The notes beneath the pieces were generated by a model that saw only the letters and a list, made by a program, of their open reading frames with translations, did no database searches and was not told where the DNA came from. Positions 3,297 through 14,849 of a DNA stretch of 16,463 bases are shown piece after piece; positions within the stretch are counted from its first letter, which is position 1, and each line of letters begins with the position of its first letter. A program made the position numbers and the translations under genes. This DNA comes from Promethearchaeota archaeon (GTDB lineage Archaea > Asgardarchaeota > Lokiarchaeia > Sigyniarchaeales > SOKP01), in NCBI GenBank assembly GCA_019058015.1, contig JAHLWH010000155.1, positions 1 to 16,463 of the forward strand, read 5' to 3'.

Positions 3297-4274
3297 ATGA
3301 ATGAAATGATCGATGACATCTTATATGAACAAATTAGATACACTCTAAAAGAAACTAATTTTCCAAAATTAGGGAAAAAGTATCAAGGAAAGGTGAGAGA
3401 TAATTATTCTAAAGAAGGTATTAGAATTATTATCGCTACTGATAGGTTGTCATCCTTTGACCGAGTTATCACTACTATTCCATTTAAGGGACAAATTTTA
3501 AATCAGCTCTCATCATTTTGGTTCGAAAAATCAAAAAATATAGCAAGAAATCATTTAATTTCTGTTCCGGATCCTAATGTTTCAGTTGTTCATGAATGCA
3601 AGACAGTTCCAATAGAAATGGTGATTCGTGGTTATATTACTGGAAGCTTGTGGCGTGCTTATCAAAAAGGAGAAAAATTCTCTGGGATTGAATTTCCAAA
3701 AGGATTAAGAAAGAATCAAAAATTTGATGAACCAATAATTACACCCTCAACTAAAGAAATACATGGTCATGATATATCTCTCTCTAAAAAGGAAATTTTA
3801 GATAAAAATTTGGTCTCAAAATCCATTTATGAACAGATGGAAGAAGATACCATTAAATTATTTGAATTTGGGCAAAATTTCAGTAAAAAAAATAATCTAA
3901 TATTAGTAGACACAAAGTATGAATTTGGATTAAAGGATGATGAGCTTTTAGTTATTGATGAGATTCATACACCTGATTCATCAAGATTTTGGATTGCTGA
4001 TACATATGAAGAATTATTTGGTAAATCTGAGGAACCTGAAATTCTTGATAAAGAATTTTTTAGAGGTTGGCTTATGGAAACATTTCCGGAGATATTTCCT
4101 AACATTAAGCCAGATGAAAAAATCCCTGAAATTCCAGACAGGATAAAAATAAAGTTAGCTAAACGTTATATTAACAATTTCGAAAGAATAATTGGGGTGC
4201 AATTTAATCCTGATACTAAAAAGGATCCTATTGAACGAATTAAAGATAATTTAAAAAATGCTGGTTATTTATAA
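3297..4274 (+). CDS. purC: Phosphoribosylaminoimidazolesuccinocarboxamide (SAICAR) synthase, long type
   Basis: GKVRDNY, TDRLSSFD, IPFKGQILN, PIEMVIRGYITGS, TPSTK, LVDTKYEFG, DEIHTPDSSRFW, LDKEFFR. Confidence 0.97.
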   Translation: MNEMIDDILYEQIRYTLKETNFPKLGKKYQGKVRDNYSKEGIRIIIATDRLSSFDRVITTIPFKGQILNQLSSFWFEKSKNIARNHLISVPDPNVSVVHECKTVPIEMVIRGYITGSLWRAYQKGEKFSGIEFPKGLRKNQKFDEPIITPSTKEIHGHDISLSKKEILDKNLVSKSIYEQMEEDTIKLFEFGQNFSKKNNLILVDTKYEFGLKDDELLVIDEIHTPDSSRFWIADTYEELFGKSEEPEILDKEFFRGWLMETFPEIFPNIKPDEKIPEIPDRIKIKLAKRYINNFERIIGVQFNPDTKKDPIERIKDNLKNAGYL

Positions 4275-4504: not shown

Positions 4505-4768
4505 ATGGAATATATTGTAGAAGTAGTATTAGAAAATAAGCCAGCTGCACGGGATCCAGTGGGTTCCACTATTCAGAAAGATCTGATGGCTAAGCAAGGA
4601 TATGATATGGTTTCAAATGTCAGAACAGGGCAATATTTAAGGATTTATGTAAAAGCCGAAAATGAGCAATTGGCAGAAAAACTCGTGGAAAAAATGTGTA
4701 ATGATCTCAGGATTTTTAATCCAGTGACCCAAAATCTAACAGTTCTAAGTGTTAAAAAGAAAAATTAA
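4505..4768 (+). CDS. purS: FGAM synthase subunit PurS
   Basis: 87 aa with K-x-x-x-x-DP-x-G-x-TI, VRTG and the C-terminal L-x-x-x-NPV; lies directly before purQ. Confidence 0.93.
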   Translation: MEYIVEVVLENKPAARDPVGSTIQKDLMAKQGYDMVSNVRTGQYLRIYVKAENEQLAEKLVEKMCNDLRIFNPVTQNLTVLSVKKKN

Positions 4769-4785: not shown

Positions 4786-5496
4786 ATGAATATAAGAATT
4801 GCTGTTATCCAATTCCCAGGATCAAATTGCGATCGTGATGCAACTCATGTATTAAACAATGTTATTGGCATCCAAGCGGATTTGATTTGGCACACTAATT
4901 TTAAAGAAAGAAAATATGATGGTTGTATTCTTCCAGGTGGTTTTTCTTTCGGGGATTATTTACGTGGCGGAATTATAGCAGCTCATAGTCCTGCTGTAAA
5001 GGAAGCTGAAATAATGCTTAAAGATGGACGTCCTGTATTAGGGATTTGCAATGGTTTTCAAATTCTTACAGAAGCTGAATTTTTACCTGGTGCACTTTTA
5101 AGAAATAATACTTTAAAATTTGAATGTAAGTGGGTTCATATAAGGGTTGAAAATAATGAAACGGCATTTTCAAATCAAATGAAAAAAAAAGAGATAATGG
5201 ATATTCCCATTGCTCATAGTGAAGGCAGATACTTTTACGATAATTTAAAAGAATTATATGATAATGATCAAATCGTTTTTAAATATGTTTCAAAGGAGGG
5301 GCTTCTTAATGAAGAATCAAATCCAAATGGCTCATTCGATAACATTGCTGGAGTTTGCAATTTAGAACGAAACTGTGTTGGCTTAATGCCTCATCCTGAA
5401 AGAGCTTCAGAGGAAATCTTAAGCCCATTTAAGAATACTCATGGGATAAAATTATTTAATTCAATGGTCAATTTTATAAAATCTAAAGTGATTTAA
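4786..5496 (+). CDS. purQ: FGAM synthase glutaminase subunit PurQ
   Basis: FPGSNCD, LPGGFSFGDYLR, GICNGFQIL (catalytic Cys), PIAHSEGRY, NPNGS, GLMPHPER (His/Glu). Confidence 0.98.
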   Translation: MNIRIAVIQFPGSNCDRDATHVLNNVIGIQADLIWHTNFKERKYDGCILPGGFSFGDYLRGGIIAAHSPAVKEAEIMLKDGRPVLGICNGFQILTEAEFLPGALLRNNTLKFECKWVHIRVENNETAFSNQMKKKEIMDIPIAHSEGRYFYDNLKELYDNDQIVFKYVSKEGLLNEESNPNGSFDNIAGVCNLERNCVGLMPHPERASEEILSPFKNTHGIKLFNSMVNFIKSKVI

Positions 5497-5500
5497 TCAT

Positions 5501-7744
5501 ATGCCCATAGTTGAGAATGAAGGAGAAACGGTTGAGGTTGATTTAACAGAAGAAGAGATAAAAAAGATTAAATCACTTCTTGGAAGAGACCCATATATTA
5601 CAGAATGGGGTATGTTTGATGTAATGGGAAGTGAGCATTGTTCTTATAAATCTTCTCGCCCTAAATTAAAATTATTTGAGCCTGCAGAAGAGAATTATGA
5701 TTATGTTTTAGCGGGTCCCGGACAAGATGCTGGTGTTGTTGATATTGGTGACGATTATTGCATAGCATTTCGAATTGAATCTCATAATCATCCTTCTGCA
5801 ATAGAGCCATATCATGGTGCAGCTACGGGTATTGGGGGCATAATTAGAGATATTTTATGTATGGGTATGCGCCCAATAGCATTATTAGATCCACTTCGAT
5901 TTGGAAGATTAAAAAATAATTCTCATTCTCAATGGCTACTAAAATATGTTGTAAAGGGAATTGCAGATTATGGAAATTGTACTGGAATTCCTACAATTGG
6001 TGGAGAAGTTGAATTTGACCATAGTTTTGAAAATAATTGCTTAGTAAATGTAGCATGTATTGGTGTTGGTAAAGTTGAAGATTTGGCTCCAAGTAGAGCA
6101 TCAAAACCTGGAGATTATGCTGTATTAATGGGAAATTCAACTGGGAGAGATGGTATTCATGGAGTTACTTTTGCTTCCAGAACTTTAACAGAACAAAGTG
6201 AATCAGATCGACCAGCGGTTCAAATTGCAGATCCTTTTAGTAAAAAATTAATTATTGAGGCAACGGTTGAGGCGGTTAAGACTGGATATATAAGAGGATT
6301 AAAAGATTTGGGAGGTGGGGGACTTTCTTGTGCTTCAAGTGAGTTAACGGGAGATGGAGGTACTGGGATAGAATTTGATGTCAATAAAGTTTTTACTCGT
6401 GAACCAAACATGACTCCATTTGAGATAATGCTTTCAGAATCTCAAGAAAGAATGATGTTTATTGTAAAAGCTGAAGGCTTAGAGACTATTCTTGAAATAT
6501 TTAAAAAATATGAAACCCCTTATGCTGTATTAGGAAAAATTAATAATTCAAAACTATTAAGAGTTAAAAATGCGGATAAGATAGTAGTTGAACTAGATCC
6601 CACTCTATTATCAGATTTTCCTGTTATTATTAGAGAAGAGAAACGCCCAGAGTTTCTGAATGATTTAATTAATCAGAAAACTCCTGAAAGGACATTAAAA
6701 TTTGATGGGATAATATATCGGTTAATTGCATCCGAAAATATTTGTAGTAAAGAATGGATTTATAGACAATACGATCATGAAGTAGGCGTACGATCAGTAG
6801 TAAAATGTGGAGATGGAGATTCGGGCGTATTAAGAATAATTGGAACAAATAAATTTATATCTGGTAGCGCTGGGTGTAATTCTAAACATTGTTTTCTCGA
6901 TCCGTATGAAGGAGCAAAAGGTGCAGTAGTCGAAATTGGATGTAATATTGTTTCTAATGGCTTAAAACCTATTGCAATGGTTAATTGCTGTAATTTTGGC
7001 AATCCTGAGAAGCCAACATCTTTTTGGTATTTCTCTGAATGTGTTAAAGGTATGGCAGATAGCATAAAATTTTTTAATATCCCTTGTGTTGGGGGAAATG
7101 TTTCTTTTTATAATGAGGATGAAGTTCTTCAAAAAGTAATTAAACCAACACCTATTATCATGCTTTTAGGGTATATTGAAGGTCAAGAAAATATAATCAC
7201 ATTACCTTTTAAAAAAGCAGGAAATCCAATCTTTTTAATTGGAGAAACAAAAAATGAATTAGGGGGTTCGGAATATCATTCAGTTATTTACAATATTGAA
7301 GGAGGCACTCCACCAAAAGTCAATCTCGATTCCACTAAAAGAACTTGGGACTTTCTATTGGAAGTCAATAAAAAAGGCTATATTAGATCTGTTCATGATG
7401 TTAATAAGGGTGGATTTTTAATTACTATTTTAGAAATGAGTTTTCCAAATGAATTAGGAGCTGATCTAAATCTTTATGATTGTTTTGATAAAGATTTAAC
7501 TTCCGAACAATTTTTATTTAGTGAGTCGGTTGGAAGATTCATAATAGAAGTAGACGCTGATAAAATAAAAGAATTTATAGCATTAATTGAAAAGAATAAA
7601 CTCTATTTTAAAGAAATTGGAGTCATTATTGAAGAAATGCAAATTAAGATTAAAAGACTTGAAGAAAATTTTAATTTAGATATTATGATAGCAAAAAATT
7701 TATTCAATTCAACATTACCTAGAATCATGGAAGGAGATATGTGA
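5501..7744 (+). CDS. purL: FGAM synthase subunit PurL (small type)
   Basis: SEHCSYKSS, ESHNHPSAIEPYHGAATGIGGIIRD, TGRDGIHG, DLGGGGL, MLSESQERM, QYDHEVG, NFGNPE, GGNVSFYN, FSES. Confidence 0.98.
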   Translation: MPIVENEGETVEVDLTEEEIKKIKSLLGRDPYITEWGMFDVMGSEHCSYKSSRPKLKLFEPAEENYDYVLAGPGQDAGVVDIGDDYCIAFRIESHNHPSAIEPYHGAATGIGGIIRDILCMGMRPIALLDPLRFGRLKNNSHSQWLLKYVVKGIADYGNCTGIPTIGGEVEFDHSFENNCLVNVACIGVGKVEDLAPSRASKPGDYAVLMGNSTGRDGIHGVTFASRTLTEQSESDRPAVQIADPFSKKLIIEATVEAVKTGYIRGLKDLGGGGLSCASSELTGDGGTGIEFDVNKVFTREPNMTPFEIMLSESQERMMFIVKAEGLETILEIFKKYETPYAVLGKINNSKLLRVKNADKIVVELDPTLLSDFPVIIREEKRPEFLNDLINQKTPERTLKFDGIIYRLIASENICSKEWIYRQYDHEVGVRSVVKCGDGDSGVLRIIGTNKFISGSAGCNSKHCFLDPYEGAKGAVVEIGCNIVSNGLKPIAMVNCCNFGNPEKPTSFWYFSECVKGMADSIKFFNIPCVGGNVSFYNEDEVLQKVIKPTPIIMLLGYIEGQENIITLPFKKAGNPIFLIGETKNELGGSEYHSVIYNIEGGTPPKVNLDSTKRTWDFLLEVNKKGYIRSVHDVNKGGFLITILEMSFPNELGADLNLYDCFDKDLTSEQFLFSESVGRFIIEVDADKIKEFIALIEKNKLYFKEIGVIIEEMQIKIKRLEENFNLDIMIAKNLFNSTLPRIMEGDM

Positions 7745-9141
7745 TGGGTGGTCTTTTTGGAGTCTTTTCAAATAGTGATTGTATAGAGGATCTTTTTTAC
7801 GGGACTGATTATCATTCCCATTTAGGAACCAGAAGAGGCGGATTGACCGTAAAAAACTCTGGTGGATTTCAAAGATATATTAAGGATATCACAACAACTC
7901 AATTCAGGTCGAAATTCGAGGATGATATCAAGAAAATGCACGGAAATAAAGGTATCGGAGTGATCAGTGATTATGATGATCAACCCTTGATAATCGGCTC
8001 ACGTTTAGGCGTATTCGCCATTGCTACAGTTGGTAGAATTAACAATTTGGAAAAGCTAGCAGAAGAAGTATTAAAGAATGGATCACATTTCTCAGAAATG
8101 CATGGAGGGGAAATCAACCCCACGGAAATGGTCGCAACTATAATTAGCCAAGGTTCTACCTATGAAGAAGGAATTCAGAAAGTCCTCGATATGATTGATG
8201 GTTCTTGTACTATGCTTATATTAACGGATGAAGGTATTTATGCGGTACGAGATAAACTTGGTAGAACACCTCTCATTATAGGAGAAAAATTAGGATCTTA
8301 TGCCGTTGCAATGGAAACTTGTGCATTCCCAAATATCGAGTATAAAATAACAAAATACCTTGGACCAGGTGAAGTAATTTTCATAAGTGAGAAAGGTCTT
8401 GAACAGAAAATCGCACCTGGTGACCGGATGCAAATTTGTGCTTTCTTATGGGTATATTATGGATATCCAGCATCTAATTATGAGGGTATTAATGTTGAAG
8501 TTGTTCGTTACAAATGCGGTTCTTACTTGGCAAAGAAAGATGATGTGGAAATTGATCTCGTAGCGGGTATCCCGGATTCTGGAACACCGCATGGCTTGGG
8601 TTATGCTAGTGAAGCAAAAACTCCTTTCTCACGACCATTTGTAAAATACACCCCAACCTGGCCACGGAGTTTCATGCCTCAAGATCAATCCATTAGAGAA
8701 CTCGTTGCGAAGATGAAACTCATCCCGATTAAAGAACTCATTGATGGTAAGCGTCTACTTTTCTGTGAAGACTCAATCGTGAGAGGAACGCAACTTAGAG
8801 ATACAATTCAAAGGCTGTACAATTCTGGGGCTAAGGAAGTTCACATGCGACCAGCATGCCCTCCGCTTATTTATAGCTGCAAATTCCTTAATTTCTCCCG
8901 CTCTCGTTCTGAATTAGATTTAGCAGGACGCTGGGGCATAAGAGAACTAATTGGAAAGGATATCGACGATCCTGCCGAATATATCGACCCTGAGTCTGAT
9001 AATTATAAAGCCATGGTTGATGTTATACGTAAAAGGTTGCAGTTGACAACGTTAAAATACCAGAGACTTGAAGACCTAGTTAAAGCTATTGGTCTACCCA
9101 AGGAAAAACTGTGTACGTATTGCTGGGATGGCGTAGAATAG
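7744..9141 (+). CDS. purF: Atypical amidophosphoribosyltransferase (PurF-like) lacking the catalytic N-terminal Cys
   Basis: The PRTase domain is intact (GIPDSG, FCEDSIVRGTQ, EVHMRPACPP, LCTYCW) and RDKLGRTPL is present. The N-terminus is MGGLFG rather than CG(I/V)FG. ATG 7744 overlaps the purL stop (TGATG). Confidence 0.88.
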   Translation: MGGLFGVFSNSDCIEDLFYGTDYHSHLGTRRGGLTVKNSGGFQRYIKDITTTQFRSKFEDDIKKMHGNKGIGVISDYDDQPLIIGSRLGVFAIATVGRINNLEKLAEEVLKNGSHFSEMHGGEINPTEMVATIISQGSTYEEGIQKVLDMIDGSCTMLILTDEGIYAVRDKLGRTPLIIGEKLGSYAVAMETCAFPNIEYKITKYLGPGEVIFISEKGLEQKIAPGDRMQICAFLWVYYGYPASNYEGINVEVVRYKCGSYLAKKDDVEIDLVAGIPDSGTPHGLGYASEAKTPFSRPFVKYTPTWPRSFMPQDQSIRELVAKMKLIPIKELIDGKRLLFCEDSIVRGTQLRDTIQRLYNSGAKEVHMRPACPPLIYSCKFLNFSRSRSELDLAGRWGIRELIGKDIDDPAEYIDPESDNYKAMVDVIRKRLQLTTLKYQRLEDLVKAIGLPKEKLCTYCWDGVE

Positions 9142-9143
9142 TT

Positions 9144-9331
9144 GTTAAAGAATTCCAAGCATTAACTGAAAATTTTGATATTCCATCAAAAAAATTGGAG
9201 TTATTATTAATTAAAAAGAAATTTAAGTTAAGATTCTTAATGAAATTTTTAATTTGGATATTATCAACACAAAAAATTTATACTATTCAACATTTCCTAG
9301 AATAATGGAAGAAGCAAATTCGAAAATATGA
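9144..9331 (+). pseudogene. purL: Degenerate relic of a purL 3' end (about 62 codons, one frameshift, two TAA stops)
   Basis: With one A restored in the A7 run at 9188-9194 it reads VKEFQALTENFDIPSKKIGVIIN*KEI*VKILNEIFNLDIINTKNLYYSTFPRIMEEANSKI*. This aligns without gaps to the PurL C-terminus (7565-7744), with 31 of 56 residues identical by hand count. Confidence 0.88.
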
Positions 9332-10914
9332 GTAGTTTAAATTATTATTCAAATTGTTTTAAAAATTGCAACTCTTGTTCAAAAGATAATTTTTTTAATA
9401 AAGATTTTAATACAAAACTTCTTTATTCCTCTCCCTTAATGATTAATAAACCTCGAGATCATTGCGGAGTTTTCGGTATTTCAACACCAGATATGGAATA
9501 TAACATTGCTCATGAGTTATATTTAGGGCTAATGGGTGTTCAACATAGAGGTCAAGAAGCAGTTGGCATCTCTATTGTAAATGGACATAATAAAATTCAT
9601 TCTTATAAAAGTCGTGGATTGGCTGCGCAATCTTTAAATCAGGAACTTTTAAAACAATATTGGGGAAATGCTGGAATCGGTCATGTGAGATATGGCACAA
9701 CTGAAACTTCGAATATTCTTTTTGCTCAGCCGTACCAATTTTGTTCTAACCAGATTGAATATTCTTTTGGTTTCAATGGCACTATTGCAAACTATATGAA
9801 ATTAAAGAAGCAATTAGGTGAAAAAGGAATAATAATCAATAGTAATAGTGATACTGAAGTAGTTGCAAATTTATTTGCTTCTTTAAGTATTGGTACTAAA
9901 GATTGGATTGAAATCTTTAGAATTGCTGCAAAATTTCTCGATGGATCTTATTCTCTCACTTTATTAACGCCAGAGGGCGATATTTATGCTGTAAGAGATC
10001 CGTATGGATTTAAACCTTTATGTTATGGAGTAGTTGATGATGATAATCGAATTAAAAATGTTGTAGCATCAGAAAGTTGCGCAATAGATGCTGTTAATGG
10101 CAAATTAATTGATGATGTAAAACCAGGACAAATTGTTCATTTTGAACCTACAGGTAATATTAATAAGGAAACCTTTGCGAATTCAAAAAGAACAGCATTA
10201 TGCCAATTTGAATTTGTTTATTTCGCACGACCTGATTCGATAGTTGATGGAGTTCCTGTAAATAAAGCAAGAGAAAATTTAGGCATAAATTTAGCAAAAG
10301 AACACCCTTGTGATTTATATAATACTATTATTGTTCCAGTTCCTGATTCTGGGAGAAGTGCTGCATCAGGATATGCTAAAGAATCTGGATTTCCTTATGA
10401 AGAAGGTTTAATGAAGAATAGATATGTTTGGCGAACTTTTATTATGCCTGGTCAAAAGAATCGTGAGAACGCAGTTTCTGAGAAATTAAACCCCATTAGA
10501 TCAATCATAAGTGGAAAAAACGTAGTCTTAGTTGATGATTCCATTGTAAGAGGGACAACAATGGCTCAAATAGTATCACTTCTTAGAAAAGGCGGAGCAA
10601 AATCAGTTCATGTGCGAATCTCCGCACCGCCAATAAAAGCAGCATGTTATATGGGGATTGATTTTCCTTCTTCCTCTGAGCTATTGGCTGGACGGATGGA
10701 ACTTATAGATAAAGATAATTGGATAGATCTTGTTCGACAAAAAATTGGAGCCGACTCATTAAATTATCAAAGTATTGATGGTCTGGTAAGAGCAATAGGA
10801 TTAAGGAAGAATCAACTTTGTTTAGCATGTTTAAATGAAGAATATGTAATTAAGAGTGCTTCAGAATTGCAAAATTTAGAGAAATACTTTGTGAGATCGC
10901 GTGATCGGATATAA
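9328..10914 (+). CDS. purF: Amidophosphoribosyltransferase, canonical Fe-S/propeptide type
   Basis: KPRDH/CGVFG cleavage site, QHRGQE, GHVRYGT, FNG, SDTE, RDPYGFKPL, CQFEFVYFARPDS, VPDSG, VDDSIVRGTT, CYMGID, LCLAC. ATG 9439 is an alternative start. Confidence 0.97.
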   Translation: MSSLNYYSNCFKNCNSCSKDNFFNKDFNTKLLYSSPLMINKPRDHCGVFGISTPDMEYNIAHELYLGLMGVQHRGQEAVGISIVNGHNKIHSYKSRGLAAQSLNQELLKQYWGNAGIGHVRYGTTETSNILFAQPYQFCSNQIEYSFGFNGTIANYMKLKKQLGEKGIIINSNSDTEVVANLFASLSIGTKDWIEIFRIAAKFLDGSYSLTLLTPEGDIYAVRDPYGFKPLCYGVVDDDNRIKNVVASESCAIDAVNGKLIDDVKPGQIVHFEPTGNINKETFANSKRTALCQFEFVYFARPDSIVDGVPVNKARENLGINLAKEHPCDLYNTIIVPVPDSGRSAASGYAKESGFPYEEGLMKNRYVWRTFIMPGQKNRENAVSEKLNPIRSIISGKNVVLVDDSIVRGTTMAQIVSLLRKGGAKSVHVRISAPPIKAACYMGIDFPSSSELLAGRMELIDKDNWIDLVRQKIGADSLNYQSIDGLVRAIGLRKNQLCLACLNEEYVIKSASELQNLEKYFVRSRDRI

Positions 10915-12216: not shown

Positions 12217-13044
12217 TTACATTTTATCTTTTAAAGTATCTATTACCTTTAAGATTTTTTCTCGAAACCAATGTTCGTCTGGTTCCTTGTGTTGAGTACT
12301 AATAAAATTTATTACGGAAGAAAACAATGGAAAGTAAAAATTTGTTATGGAATACTTAATTCTATCGAGTTCAAAAGGGATTTTTCCGTTTTCATCATAA
12401 TAATTCTTTGAAAAACTACAGTTCAATGTGTTTATATTATTTCTCCATTGATGACCTAAAATTCTATAAATATTAACATCATTTTTAATCTTCCGTAAGG
12501 GTTGTACCAATTCAATCTGATGCTTTTTTAATAAGGATTTGTACAAATCTAAAATCTCAGAAATTTGATTCAACTTTTCAACGGAATTATGAGACTCCCT
12601 TTCACCTGTTATGATTTTTTGAATATTATAAAAATTTGCTATAGGAATTCTCATCATATGAAGAAATAAATGACATGCTGGACATGGGGTAAAATATCCG
12701 AAATATTTTTGAACTATAGCAATATTTTGTAAAATTAATTGTTCAAATAAATTTCCGACATCGAGATAAATAAAGGGCATGAAATCTAATTTTTTTGATA
12801 AATACAACTTTACTAGATAATCGAAATTTTCCCATGGTTCATTTTTATTACCATATAAAACCCGATGATACAAACTAATTCCTAGCAATGACTTTACTTC
12901 GTTCTCCTTAAATAATTGAATCACTGCAGCAATACTGTCTTTTCCTGCAATTTCGGCAATAAATCGATTTGAATTAACATCAAGTAGAATTGGAGGATTT
13001 TTAAAGAAATCTACATATTTTATTATTTGTATTTTAGTGGGTAT
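12217..13044 (-). CDS. Uncharacterised PP-loop (adenine nucleotide alpha-hydrolase-like) protein with a CxxCH motif; probable non-canonical start
   Basis: The frame stays open upstream of the listed GTG (12924) as far as TAG at 13066-13068, and encodes FIAEIAGKDSIAA (PP-loop-like). Downstream it has TPCPACHL, IITGERESH, QPLR and CSF. ATA at 13044 lies 7 nt after GGTG. Confidence 0.7.
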   Translation of the reverse strand: MPTKIQIIKYVDFFKNPPILLDVNSNRFIAEIAGKDSIAAVIQLFKENEVKSLLGISLYHRVLYGNKNEPWENFDYLVKLYLSKKLDFMPFIYLDVGNLFEQLILQNIAIVQKYFGYFTPCPACHLFLHMMRIPIANFYNIQKIITGERESHNSVEKLNQISEILDLYKSLLKKHQIELVQPLRKIKNDVNIYRILGHQWRNNINTLNCSFSKNYYDENGKIPFELDRIKYSITNFYFPLFSSVINFISTQHKEPDEHWFREKILKVIDTLKDKM

Positions 13045-13220: not shown

Positions 13221-14219
13221 ATGGCATTTTTGAGTGTAAATAAATTAGCATTAGAGATTGTAAAAAAAGTTATTTCAAAAAAGGAAATATTGAATATTTC
13301 AGTTGAAACTTTGTCAAATGGCGCCACAGTATTAGATTTTAGTAAAGGATCTTATGGGGCTGGTAAATTCTTATCTGAAATTTGTCTAGGAGGTCTTGGA
13401 ATTGTCAAATTTACAAATTATATGCTGGATAAACATTATATTCCTGCTGTTACTGTCAATACTTCTGAGCCAATAATTTCTTGCATGGCATCTCAATTCG
13501 CAGGGTGGAATGTAAAACTAAAAAAAGAAGTGGAAATTGATGGTGAAATCAAAAAGAAGAAGGTTTTTGAATCTTTAGGTTCTGGTCCCGCTAGAGCGCT
13601 GTCACGAGTTGAAAAAGATTTATATGAAGAATTGGGGTATAAAGATGATGCCGATTGTGCAATTTTAGTATTTGAAACAGCAAAATTACCCAATGAGGAA
13701 GTAATGGAATTAATAGCTAAAAAATGCGGAGTAAGCCCCAGTAATGCTTATGCATGTTGCGCACCCACAGCATGTTTGTGTGGCTCAATTCAAATAGCAT
13801 CAAGAATTGTAGAAACGGGTATTCATAAACTGCATGAGTTACATTTTCCGTTAGATGTGATTAAATATGGTTTTGGAACGACCACAATTGCCCCAATTGC
13901 AAAAGATGATTTAAAAGCAATGGGAGTTACTAACGACTCATTAATTGCAACTGGAAGTGTATATTATACAATTGAAGCTGACAAAGAAAAACAAGAAGAA
14001 TTGTGGGAACTTGTTAAAAAAGCACCCTCAAACACATCTTCCAGCTATGGAAAACCTTTCATTGAAACCTTTAAAGAAGTCGACTATAAATTCTATGATA
14101 TTGACCCAGGACTTTTCGCTCCAGCATTATTTACTGTAAATAATTCAAAAACCGGGAAGATAATATCGGCTGGAGCTATAAATAACGACCTTCTTAAATT
14201 ATCTTATGGTTTATCTTAA
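13221..14219 (+). CDS. mch: Methenyltetrahydromethanopterin cyclohydrolase
   Basis: LSVNKLA, LSNGATVLD, EICLGGLG, CMASQFAGW, LGSGPARAL, APTA..GSIQIASRIVETGIHK, MGVTND, PS..S..YGKPF, FYDIDPGLFAPA. Confidence 0.96.
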   Translation: MAFLSVNKLALEIVKKVISKKEILNISVETLSNGATVLDFSKGSYGAGKFLSEICLGGLGIVKFTNYMLDKHYIPAVTVNTSEPIISCMASQFAGWNVKLKKEVEIDGEIKKKKVFESLGSGPARALSRVEKDLYEELGYKDDADCAILVFETAKLPNEEVMELIAKKCGVSPSNAYACCAPTACLCGSIQIASRIVETGIHKLHELHFPLDVIKYGFGTTTIAPIAKDDLKAMGVTNDSLIATGSVYYTIEADKEKQEELWELVKKAPSNTSSSYGKPFIETFKEVDYKFYDIDPGLFAPALFTVNNSKTGKIISAGAINNDLLKLSYGLS

Positions 14220-14252: not shown

Positions 14253-14849
14253 TTACCCCATAAAATTCTGCTTTGCTCCAATTAGCGTGGTAGTTTCTTC
14301 GATAATTGTTGATAACTCCTTTTCACTAGGTTAATTAGTAATAATTTTATCTAATTCATTGAGTTTAGAAAATGATATTGCAGCCAATAAATCCCAGCCT
14401 CCATAAATCGGAGAAGCATATGTAATTAACCAATCCTCTCCATACTCGGTTGATCTTAAATCTTTTATTTTATTTACAATTTCTTCTTCTAATCCAATTT
14501 TTTTTAACCTAACAAGAACATAAGCACGATAATATAGATTTTTGGATTTTATTTTTGTGGCGTCAAAGTTGTTCTTTGTGCTGGTGAAGGTTGTAGATTC
14601 TTCAATTATCTTAGATAGTTCCTCATCAATTTTAAAAAAAGTTTTCAACTTATCTAATTCTTCATGCTTCGAAAAACATATTTCCAATAAAATATCCCAA
14701 GATCCAAATATGGGAGTACAATAAAAAACAAACCAGTCTTCATCTTCATCATCTTCTCTTGATTTTAAATTTCTAACTTTCTCCACTACTTTCCATTCTG
14801 AACCTATCTCCCGTAGTCTGATAAGAATGTATCCTTTGTAATATCGCAT
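14253..14849 (-). pseudogene. Tandem two-domain Lrp/AsnC ligand-binding (RAM)-like protein without HTH, interrupted by an in-frame TAA at 14331-14333
   Basis: Two internal repeats: YYKGYILIRL...PIFGSWDILLE...ELDK...IIEESTT and YYRAYVLVRL...PIYGGWDLLAA...ELDK. Repeat-2 homology continues in frame past the stop (PSEKELSTIIEETTTLIGAKQNFMG*). The RAM-fold call rests on the A-Y-V-L-V...G-x-W-D...T-x-T pattern. Confidence 0.7.

Follow-up and report, generated by a model that had tools for sequence, protein, structure and literature searches.

Why would an archaeon keep, next to a normal purF gene, a second gene whose product resembles PurF in everything except its glutaminase residues? The question is raised by contig JAHLWH010000155.1 of a low-GC Asgard archaeon, a stretch of 16,463 nucleotides that was analysed as a whole and is called the window below. 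PurF catalyses the committed, regulated step of purine synthesis and, to our knowledge, is treated everywhere as glutamine-dependent. The second gene (purF', 7744-9141, + strand) is a stop-free open reading frame (ORF) for a 465-residue protein starting with MGGLFG, which we call the Cys-less PurF. A first-pass annotation of this DNA had presented it as a glutaminase-dead paralogue kept beside a canonical PurF, and had suggested three roles: an ammonia-dependent entry to purine synthesis next to the glutamine-dependent one, use of ammonia supplied by PurQ, or partnership with PurF in regulation or in mixed oligomers. It had also named selection, phylogeny and co-occurrence as ways to check the idea. 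Our own answer, in which belief and doubt are evenly balanced, is that the Cys-less PurF may be an ammonia-dependent phosphoribosylamine synthase, an isozyme of glutamine-dependent PurF.

A PurF fold and its replaced glutamine site

The Cys-less PurF aligns with the neighbouring canonical PurF at 29% identity (BLASTP, E 7e-50), and each altered motif listed in the first-pass annotation was recovered in this alignment. Gly2 falls opposite Cys46 of the neighbour and Cys1 of the Bacillus subtilis structure 1ao0, so that the N-terminal nucleophile cysteine is missing; canonical QHRGQ reads SHLGT, GHVRYGT reads GVISDYD, FNG reads TVG and SDTE reads NPTE. Four positions that we take to be glutamine-binding or oxyanion residues, namely the arginines of HRG and of the RY loop, the asparagine of Asn-Gly and the aspartate of SDTE, are replaced by L27, S75, V96 and P126, respectively. 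The motifs described earlier as retained are indeed present. The loop that binds phosphoribosyl pyrophosphate (PRPP) reads EDSIVRGT, against DDSIVRGT in the canonical protein, and Cys232, Cys379, Cys457 and Cys460 align with the canonical Fe-S cysteines, being at least 90% conserved in both groups. Over 82-87 family members, the PRPP loop, K301, R308, R318 and K325 of the flexible loop and the four cysteines all reach this level. These alignments show a protein that, judged by its residues, is incapable of glutamine hydrolysis and in which the PRPP-reacting, type I phosphoribosyltransferase (PRTase) site is intact; with its four ligand cysteines kept, a [4Fe-4S]-type cluster is also predicted.

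In the TIGR01134 profile search the Cys-less PurF reaches 181-190.9 bits, below the equivalog cut-off of 350, compared with about 423 bits for its neighbour, and the genome holds a single canonical PurF and one Cys-less paralogue. Among solved structures, its best sequence matches are B. subtilis PurF 1gph and 1ao0 (E 2.6e-49). An AlphaFold2 model built on an 82-sequence alignment (predicted local distance difference test 92.7, predicted template modelling score 0.91) matches the PurF of Arabidopsis (6lbp) and of B. subtilis (1ao0, 1gph) with template modelling scores of 0.84-0.85. In this model the protein is a full PurF fold lacking the glutaminase site: an N-terminal domain of the N-terminal nucleophile (Ntn) type (residues 1-228; 7744-8427, + strand), carrying DYHSHLG, GVISD, TVG and NPTE, is followed by the type I PRTase domain with its C-terminal tail (8428-9141, + strand), which holds the PRPP loop E342-D343-S-I-V-R-G-T-Q350 and the four cysteines.

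How far do these replacements extend through the family? We compared alignment columns between 87 family members and 23 canonical PurFs, calling a column conserved at 90% or more. In 57 columns the two groups conserve the same residue; these include the Fe-S cysteines and D343-T349 of the PRPP loop. A further 42 that are conserved in canonical PurF are altered in the family, and 43 are conserved in the Cys-less family alone (among them D12, C13, D16, D22, R55, K57, S75, D76, H87, W236, W306, C372 and W461); because of these two sets, the substitutions are not a matter of chance. All four loops of the former glutamine site carry new family-conserved sequences, the placement of the new residues round the old active site being read from the alignment. 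Family N-termini follow the pattern M-[G/S/T/A]-G-x-F-G, then FYGTDYHSHLGT; of the 87 proteins taken from loci, 70 have Gly directly after Met, 16 have Ser and one has Val. The window protein has the family motifs MGGLFG, GTDYHSHLG and RGTQ, which are at least 90% conserved in two family alignments.

Is the N-terminal domain, once its glutaminase is gone, mere dead weight? In five genomes of the window's family (f1 below), identity to the window protein is 84-85% for the Cys-less PurF and 55-57% for the canonical one. By domain, the Cys-less N-terminal half stands at 82-84%, compared with 48-53% for the working glutaminase domain in the same genomes, and its PRTase domain at 85-87%. The Cys-less PurF is the more conserved of the two proteins in all ten Asgard genome pairs, and between Asgard and bacterial proteins identity is 55-68%, against 37-45% for canonical PurF. 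The comparison of rates is fair, since the two proteins show similar branching within Asgard. Against the same-genus genome G144, the ratio of non-synonymous to synonymous substitution rates (dN/dS) is 0.10 for the Cys-less PurF (9 non-synonymous and 23 synonymous changes) and 0.19 for canonical PurF (28 and 38), all of these being small counts. The N-terminal domain, glutaminase-dead as it is, matches the PRTase domain in conservation and has new family-conserved loop motifs, and by these comparisons it is not dispensable; the earlier label is right about the missing residues and misleading if it suggests a useless domain.

The same figures bear on the idea that the gene is a decaying, functionless purF duplicate. 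Every glutaminase residue is lost and the TIGR01134 score falls below the cut-off, as such a duplicate might have it. However, the low dN/dS, the conservation above that of canonical PurF, the identity of 55-68% between Asgard and many bacterial phyla, and a reading frame without interruption in each of the 18 Asgard matches (two of which are truncated by contig ends) make this explanation scarcely credible. Neither the relaxed constraint nor the loss of catalytic residues from both domains that marks a pseudoenzyme was found, and the PRTase residues are invariant.

Distribution of the family and its place in the purine operon

A search of 1.84 billion representative proteins returned 977 family members at E ≤1e-30, and genome contigs provided 80 loci spread over 13 or more bacterial phyla, whose products are 55-84% identical to the window protein. 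The MGGFFG-type proteins of anaerobic bacteria that the first-pass annotation had mentioned are thus real. The phyla include Planctomycetota, Gemmatimonadota, Acidobacteriota, Thermodesulfobacteriota and Bacteroidota, as well as Bacillota, Verrucomicrobiota, Lentisphaerota, Spirochaetota and Chloroflexota, and databases name the proteins 'amidophosphoribosyltransferase'. Among the 151 Asgard genomes searched, orthologues scoring above 600 bits are present in 18, that is, in 17 of the 26 genomes of f1 and one of the two of f2, a family of the same order; none reached this threshold in the 123 Asgard genomes outside these two families.

The proposed phylogeny (FastTree, 110 rows, with Shimodaira-Hasegawa-like (SH-like) support only and no bootstraps) separates the 87 family rows from canonical PurF by a branch that is 0.96 long and has support of 100. 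Eleven Asgard rows, including the window protein, form one clade (support 98) that is nested among bacterial clades through nodes with support of 85-91, the root lying on the long outgroup branch. Restriction to one Asgard order and nesting within bacterial clades suggest that the Asgard lineage probably acquired the Cys-less PurF from bacteria.

A different paralogue is found in other Asgard families (L085-L089; G038, G006, G007, G002 and G066), where a canonical PurF stands in tandem with a canonical-like copy that we call PurF2. Its N-terminus reads ...GIFAFDE... and QxRGQE is kept. At the place of the nucleophile, G038 and G006 have Cys, G007 and G066 have Ser, and G002 has Val. These copies score like canonical PurF and fall outside the Cys-less family.

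In the window, purF' belongs to a purine block on the + strand with the order purC-purS-purQ-purL-purF'-purF. Its ATG overlaps the stop codon of purL (5501-7744, + strand; formylglycinamidine ribonucleotide (FGAM) synthetase II, with AIRS, AIRS_C and FGAR-AT linker domains) as TGATG, with GGAGA 7 nucleotides upstream (junction ATGTGATGG), an arrangement by which purF' is predicted to be translationally coupled to purL in the window's genus. A repeat search and alignment revealed that the last 127 nucleotides of purL (7610-7736, + strand), its functional 3' end, recur as a direct repeat at 9188-9314 (+ strand), upstream of canonical purF, with 79% identity and a start-to-start spacing of 1578 nucleotides. 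Translation of the second copy still gives a recognisable PurL C-terminus, interrupted by two in-frame stops; it appears as a decayed, non-coding relic, which tblastn also found in G144. Since this relic lies directly before canonical purF, we infer that purL once abutted purF and that the Cys-less gene was later inserted between the two, duplicating the junction. The phrase 'kept beside' is too simple for this genus, in which the Cys-less gene seems to have been inserted between its two neighbours.

The canonical, glutamine-dependent purF (9328-10914, + strand; TIGR01134 422.9 bits, cut-off 350) has its Cys46 codon at 9463-9465. Its longest ORF thus includes a 45-residue leader (9328-9462) with a cysteine-rich stretch, CFKNCNSCSK, and this leader is kept in G144 with four differences in 45 codons. 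An alternative start, Met38 at 9439, would give a propeptide of 8 residues, compared with 14-25 residues in other f1 genomes. The ATG at 9328 is placed where the purL-end relic stops.

Adjacency of the two genes is not confined to the window: purF' adjoins canonical purF in 14 of the 18 Asgard genomes that carry it, in varying orientation, and also at the bacterial loci L010 and L076. Combined with the almost constant presence of a Cys-type PurF in the same genomes, this could speak for a non-catalytic partner, the regulatory or hetero-oligomeric role of the first-pass annotation, in which the Cys-less PurF would form mixed oligomers with canonical PurF, or use its Fe-S cluster and N-terminal domain to sense a metabolite or the redox state, and so tune PurF. 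The changes of KNRY to KYTP and of ARPDS to GYPAS would fit, as they alter what we presume to be part of the nucleotide feedback site. Yet the PRTase catalytic residues, which a pure regulator would not need, are invariant in the family, and 76 of the 80 bacterial loci have no adjacent purF. In addition, the two genes lie on the same strand only in the three genomes of the window's genus; the other 11 of the 14 adjacent pairs are convergent, as seen in the other f1 genera, and hence not co-transcribed. We consider such a partner improbable.

The operon also bears on an ammonia relay, in which a separate glutaminase such as PurQ would dock on the former glutamine site and hand over its ammonia. 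Here purQ (4786-5496, + strand; glutaminase subunit of FGAM synthetase; PF13507, E 4.9e-40) is two genes upstream of purF', and at L010 it also shares a locus with purF'. However, purQ is nearby at just one of the 80 other loci, and no purL was seen beside the Cys-less gene in the fetched stretches of f1 genomes outside the window's genus. Furthermore, PurQ has partners of its own, PurL and PurS, both encoded in the window (purS at 4505-4768, + strand; PF02700, E 1e-17). The supply of ammonia by PurQ, as proposed earlier, finds little echo outside this locus and is very unlikely.

The block opens with purC (3297-4274, + strand; SAICAR synthetase; PF01259, E 2.1e-66), and purD is present in the source genome (3.84 Mb, 94% complete). 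Elsewhere in the window, a methenyl-tetrahydromethanopterin cyclohydrolase gene (MCH, E 2.5e-110) occupies 13221-14219, near the purine block. Two genes on the - strand encode a 235-residue protein for which no Pfam family was matched (12217-12924) and a 172-residue protein whose two halves resemble each other and which matches the Lrp/AsnC ligand-binding domain only weakly (14331-14849). The window gave no Rfam match at gathering score.

Companion PurFs and genomic neighbours in bacteria

Does any genome depend on the Cys-less PurF alone? The co-occurrence check covered 50 genomes carrying the gene, and nearly all have a Cys-type or canonical-type PurF besides. Another PurF scores above the TIGR01134 cut-off in 34, and three more have a near-full-length PurF at 311-329 bits. 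Truncated or split pieces of PurF are found in five, while seven, all Bacteroidota, encode a long-type, 633-residue Cys-type PurF (two of the seven genes were read directly). The last genome (G200, also Bacteroidota) falls into none of these classes.

Eight Bacteroidota genomes show no canonical PurF at E 1e-30, as if the Cys-less PurF had replaced it; a laxer search recovers the long-type Cys PurF in seven of the eight, and replacement is therefore not claimed. The long-type protein (L098:674-2575, L099:375-2276) has HECGI... and a large insert, and matches TIGR01134 as two weak pieces of about 93 and 31-35 bits. These low scores explain why the profile at E 1e-35 detects PurF in just 10 of 101 Bacteroidia genomes, and make Bacteroidota look PurF-less in strict family searches. 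A search of Asgard G135, a genome that is 99% complete, gave no canonical PurF, but its syntenic region is broken at a contig end. A DNA search with the purF region of the same-genus genome G141 gave short matches only, the best of them at a contig end, so that the absence may be either gene loss or a gap in the assembly.

Neighbouring genes were counted by tblastn at all 80 bacterial loci. The commonest neighbour is carB, which directly flanks purF' at 10 loci (L015, L020, L026, L028, L029, L044, L047, L049, L060 and L067). Canonical purF is adjacent at four (including L010 and L076), guaA is a neighbour at three, DUF1846/pyrJ is adjacent at two, asnA is a neighbour at one, and one locus (L010) is a pur operon. 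A Pfam survey of 43 of 50 chosen loci, taking two genes on each side (163 ORFs and 11 extras), found no neighbourhood conserved across phyla. Seven loci (L014, L016, L018, L024, L033, L040 and L043) are absent from it because ORF calling overlooked the gene; carB in L067 and purF in L010 escaped it too, and the counts given above therefore come from tblastn.

The carB linked to purF' has no carA beside it. All five carB-linked genomes that were tested have two carB and one carA, and in three of the five carA lies beside the other, higher-scoring carB. The second, carA-less carB may encode an ammonia-dependent carbamoyl-phosphate synthetase. L028 has the order guaA-carB-purF'-asnA, its guaA consisting of the ATP-pyrophosphatase part without the glutamine amidotransferase (GATase) domain, and in a Desulfobacteraceae metagenome-assembled genome (L029:5584-15868) the gene is part of a nitrogen-assimilation cluster, gdh-small ORF-purF'-carB-glnA-GAF-sigma54 activator.

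Two further loci deserve mention. At L076 (5399-10891), the Cys-less gene is immediately preceded by genes for a Fer4 protein, a Pyr_redox_2 flavoprotein and a GXGXG protein, which resemble components of glutamate synthase, and canonical purF comes after it. In L044, two genes for 23S rRNA intervening-sequence proteins (PF05635; 3667-4038 and 7575-7934) bracket the carA-less carB.

It is possible, and we propose it tentatively, that these genes belong to a glutamine-bypass toolkit of anaerobes, in which the Cys-less PurF, a carA-less second carB, PyrJ, a GATase-less GuaA and AsnA would together allow nucleotides to be made from ammonium. The Ntn domain would then be a re-engineered site of ammonium capture and entry, built from a free N-terminal amine and the D-Y-H-S-H and S-D loops and feeding the old channel. 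One Asgard order would have taken this piece alone from bacteria, and the window's genus would have wired it into its purine operon.

Ammonia as a proposed nitrogen donor and what it would mean

How would an ammonia-dependent isozyme work? The Cys-less PurF would form 5-phosphoribosylamine from PRPP and free ammonia, without glutamine, and beside canonical PurF it would spare glutamine, and the ATP spent on glutamine, when ammonium is plentiful. Its N-terminal domain, under strong constraint, probably closes the PRTase site and forms an ammonia entry into the old channel. Methionine aminopeptidase removes Met before small residues; more speculatively, as Met is followed by a small residue (G, S, T or A), the processed protein would carry a free amine at the former position of Cys1, and the former glutamine-binding residues, now small or apolar, could be read as an open entry for ammonia. 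This reading relies on the intact PRTase site, the place of the gene in the pur operon, co-occurrence with Cys-type PurF, and the bacterial links to carA-less carB, pyrJ, asnA, gdh and glnA. On these four points the two-enzyme entry of the first-pass annotation fits best among its suggestions, as a prediction from sequence.

Several observations weigh against it. The N-terminal domain is conserved far beyond what the use of ammonia seems to need and has acquired new family-wide polar residues (D12, C13, D16, D22, Y23, R55, K57, D76 and H87). Motifs of the PRTase half are rewritten too (ARPDS to GYPAS, KNRY to KYTP, RGTT to RGTQ, GID to LNF), and together these changes could mean another substrate, product or regulation. 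Outside Asgard archaea the link to purine genes is weak (purF adjacent at 4/80 loci, a pur operon at 1/80), and no genome among the 50 was verified to have the Cys-less PurF as its sole PurF; with the constraint on the N-terminal domain and the rewritten PRTase half, these two points account for our residual doubt. The carB and pyrJ links are associations from bacteria, the window's genome having one carB and, in our search, no DUF1846 gene. An Rfam scan (E 0.1) of the regions upstream of the gene in 20 of the 50 genomes, 20 regions in all, detected no riboswitch and gave only one miRNA match at chance level. Finally, a literature search, supplementary files lying outside it, found no biochemical or genetic characterisation of any family member, and nothing to the point turned up in PMC6925170, PMC6311696 and PMC7668255.

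Part of this evidence would suit a neo-functionalised enzyme, in which the PRTase half activates PRPP and the remodelled N-terminal domain takes on some other nucleophile or nitrogen donor, so that product or nitrogen source would not be those of PurF; the linked CarB could supply candidates, namely carbamate or carbamoyl phosphate. The four former glutamine-site loops are newly conserved at 90% or more across phyla, and not decayed, and the N-terminal domain changes as slowly as the PRTase domain. Canonical motifs of the PRTase half are altered and two extra cysteines, C13 and C372, are conserved, while the commonest neighbour is carA-less carB and no pur gene. We nevertheless find this unlikely. 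The replacements are mostly small or apolar (G2, L27, S75, V96, P126) and fit an open conduit better than a new polar site, the gene sits inside a pur operon in both the window and L010, and the neighbours point to no candidate substrate.

Comparison with known systems helps to place the ammonia-dependent isozyme. The family shares its fold, PRPP loop and four cluster cysteines with [4Fe-4S]-type PurF (B. subtilis 1ao0/1gph, Arabidopsis 6lbp), but lacks Cys1 and the glutamine-binding and oxyanion residues, has rewritten PRTase motifs and forms a long-branch clade. As Brown et al. 2011 (PMC3261824) relate from Mei and Zalkin 1989, Cys1 mutants of Escherichia coli PurF, which lack the same nucleophile, can no longer use glutamine and still accept ammonia. 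They are point mutants made in the laboratory, and the parent enzyme has no Fe-S cluster, whereas the Cys-less PurF is a natural lineage whose whole glutamine site is remodelled and conserved across phyla. A parallel in role is offered by PyrJ (DUF1846) of Streptococcus pneumoniae, which is reported in a preprint (bioRxiv 10.1101/2024.09.24.614635) to make CTP from ammonia only. It substitutes for a nucleotide amidotransferase without using glutamine, and coexists with the glutamine-dependent enzyme. Its fold is unrelated and, in the text consulted, its activity is demonstrated, whereas that of the Cys-less PurF is proposed from sequence.

The nearest precedent that we found in the literature, within the relevant part of PMC3261824, is Mlab_0150 of Methanocorpusculum labreanum, a PurF duplicate with Ser in place of Cys. 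Like the Asgard PurF2, it is a second archaeal PurF copy, some of these copies having Ser or Val at the Cys position. According to that paper and to our comparison of Asgard sequences, these copies arose by recent or lineage-specific duplication and, unlike the Cys-less PurF, retain QxRGQE along with further glutaminase motifs. New here are the Asgard case, the domain-wise comparison of rates, the putative scar of insertion, the correction for genomes that had seemed to have purF' only, and the finding of two carB with one carA.

A widespread and strongly conserved family, predicted to be unable to use glutamine, thus sits under the routine annotation 'amidophosphoribosyltransferase'. The Asgard case provides a clean test system, since a single operon encodes the two enzymes next to each other. 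If the Cys-less PurF is not an ammonia-dependent isozyme and its function differs, a new PRPP-dependent reaction would be hidden under that annotation. If it is, purine synthesis could begin without glutamine in many anaerobes, among them relatives of the archaeal ancestor of eukaryotes, and, with PyrJ and carA-less CarB, nucleotide synthesis would have an ammonia mode. Metabolic models would then change, as would the interpretation of nitrogen regulation in sediments and guts.

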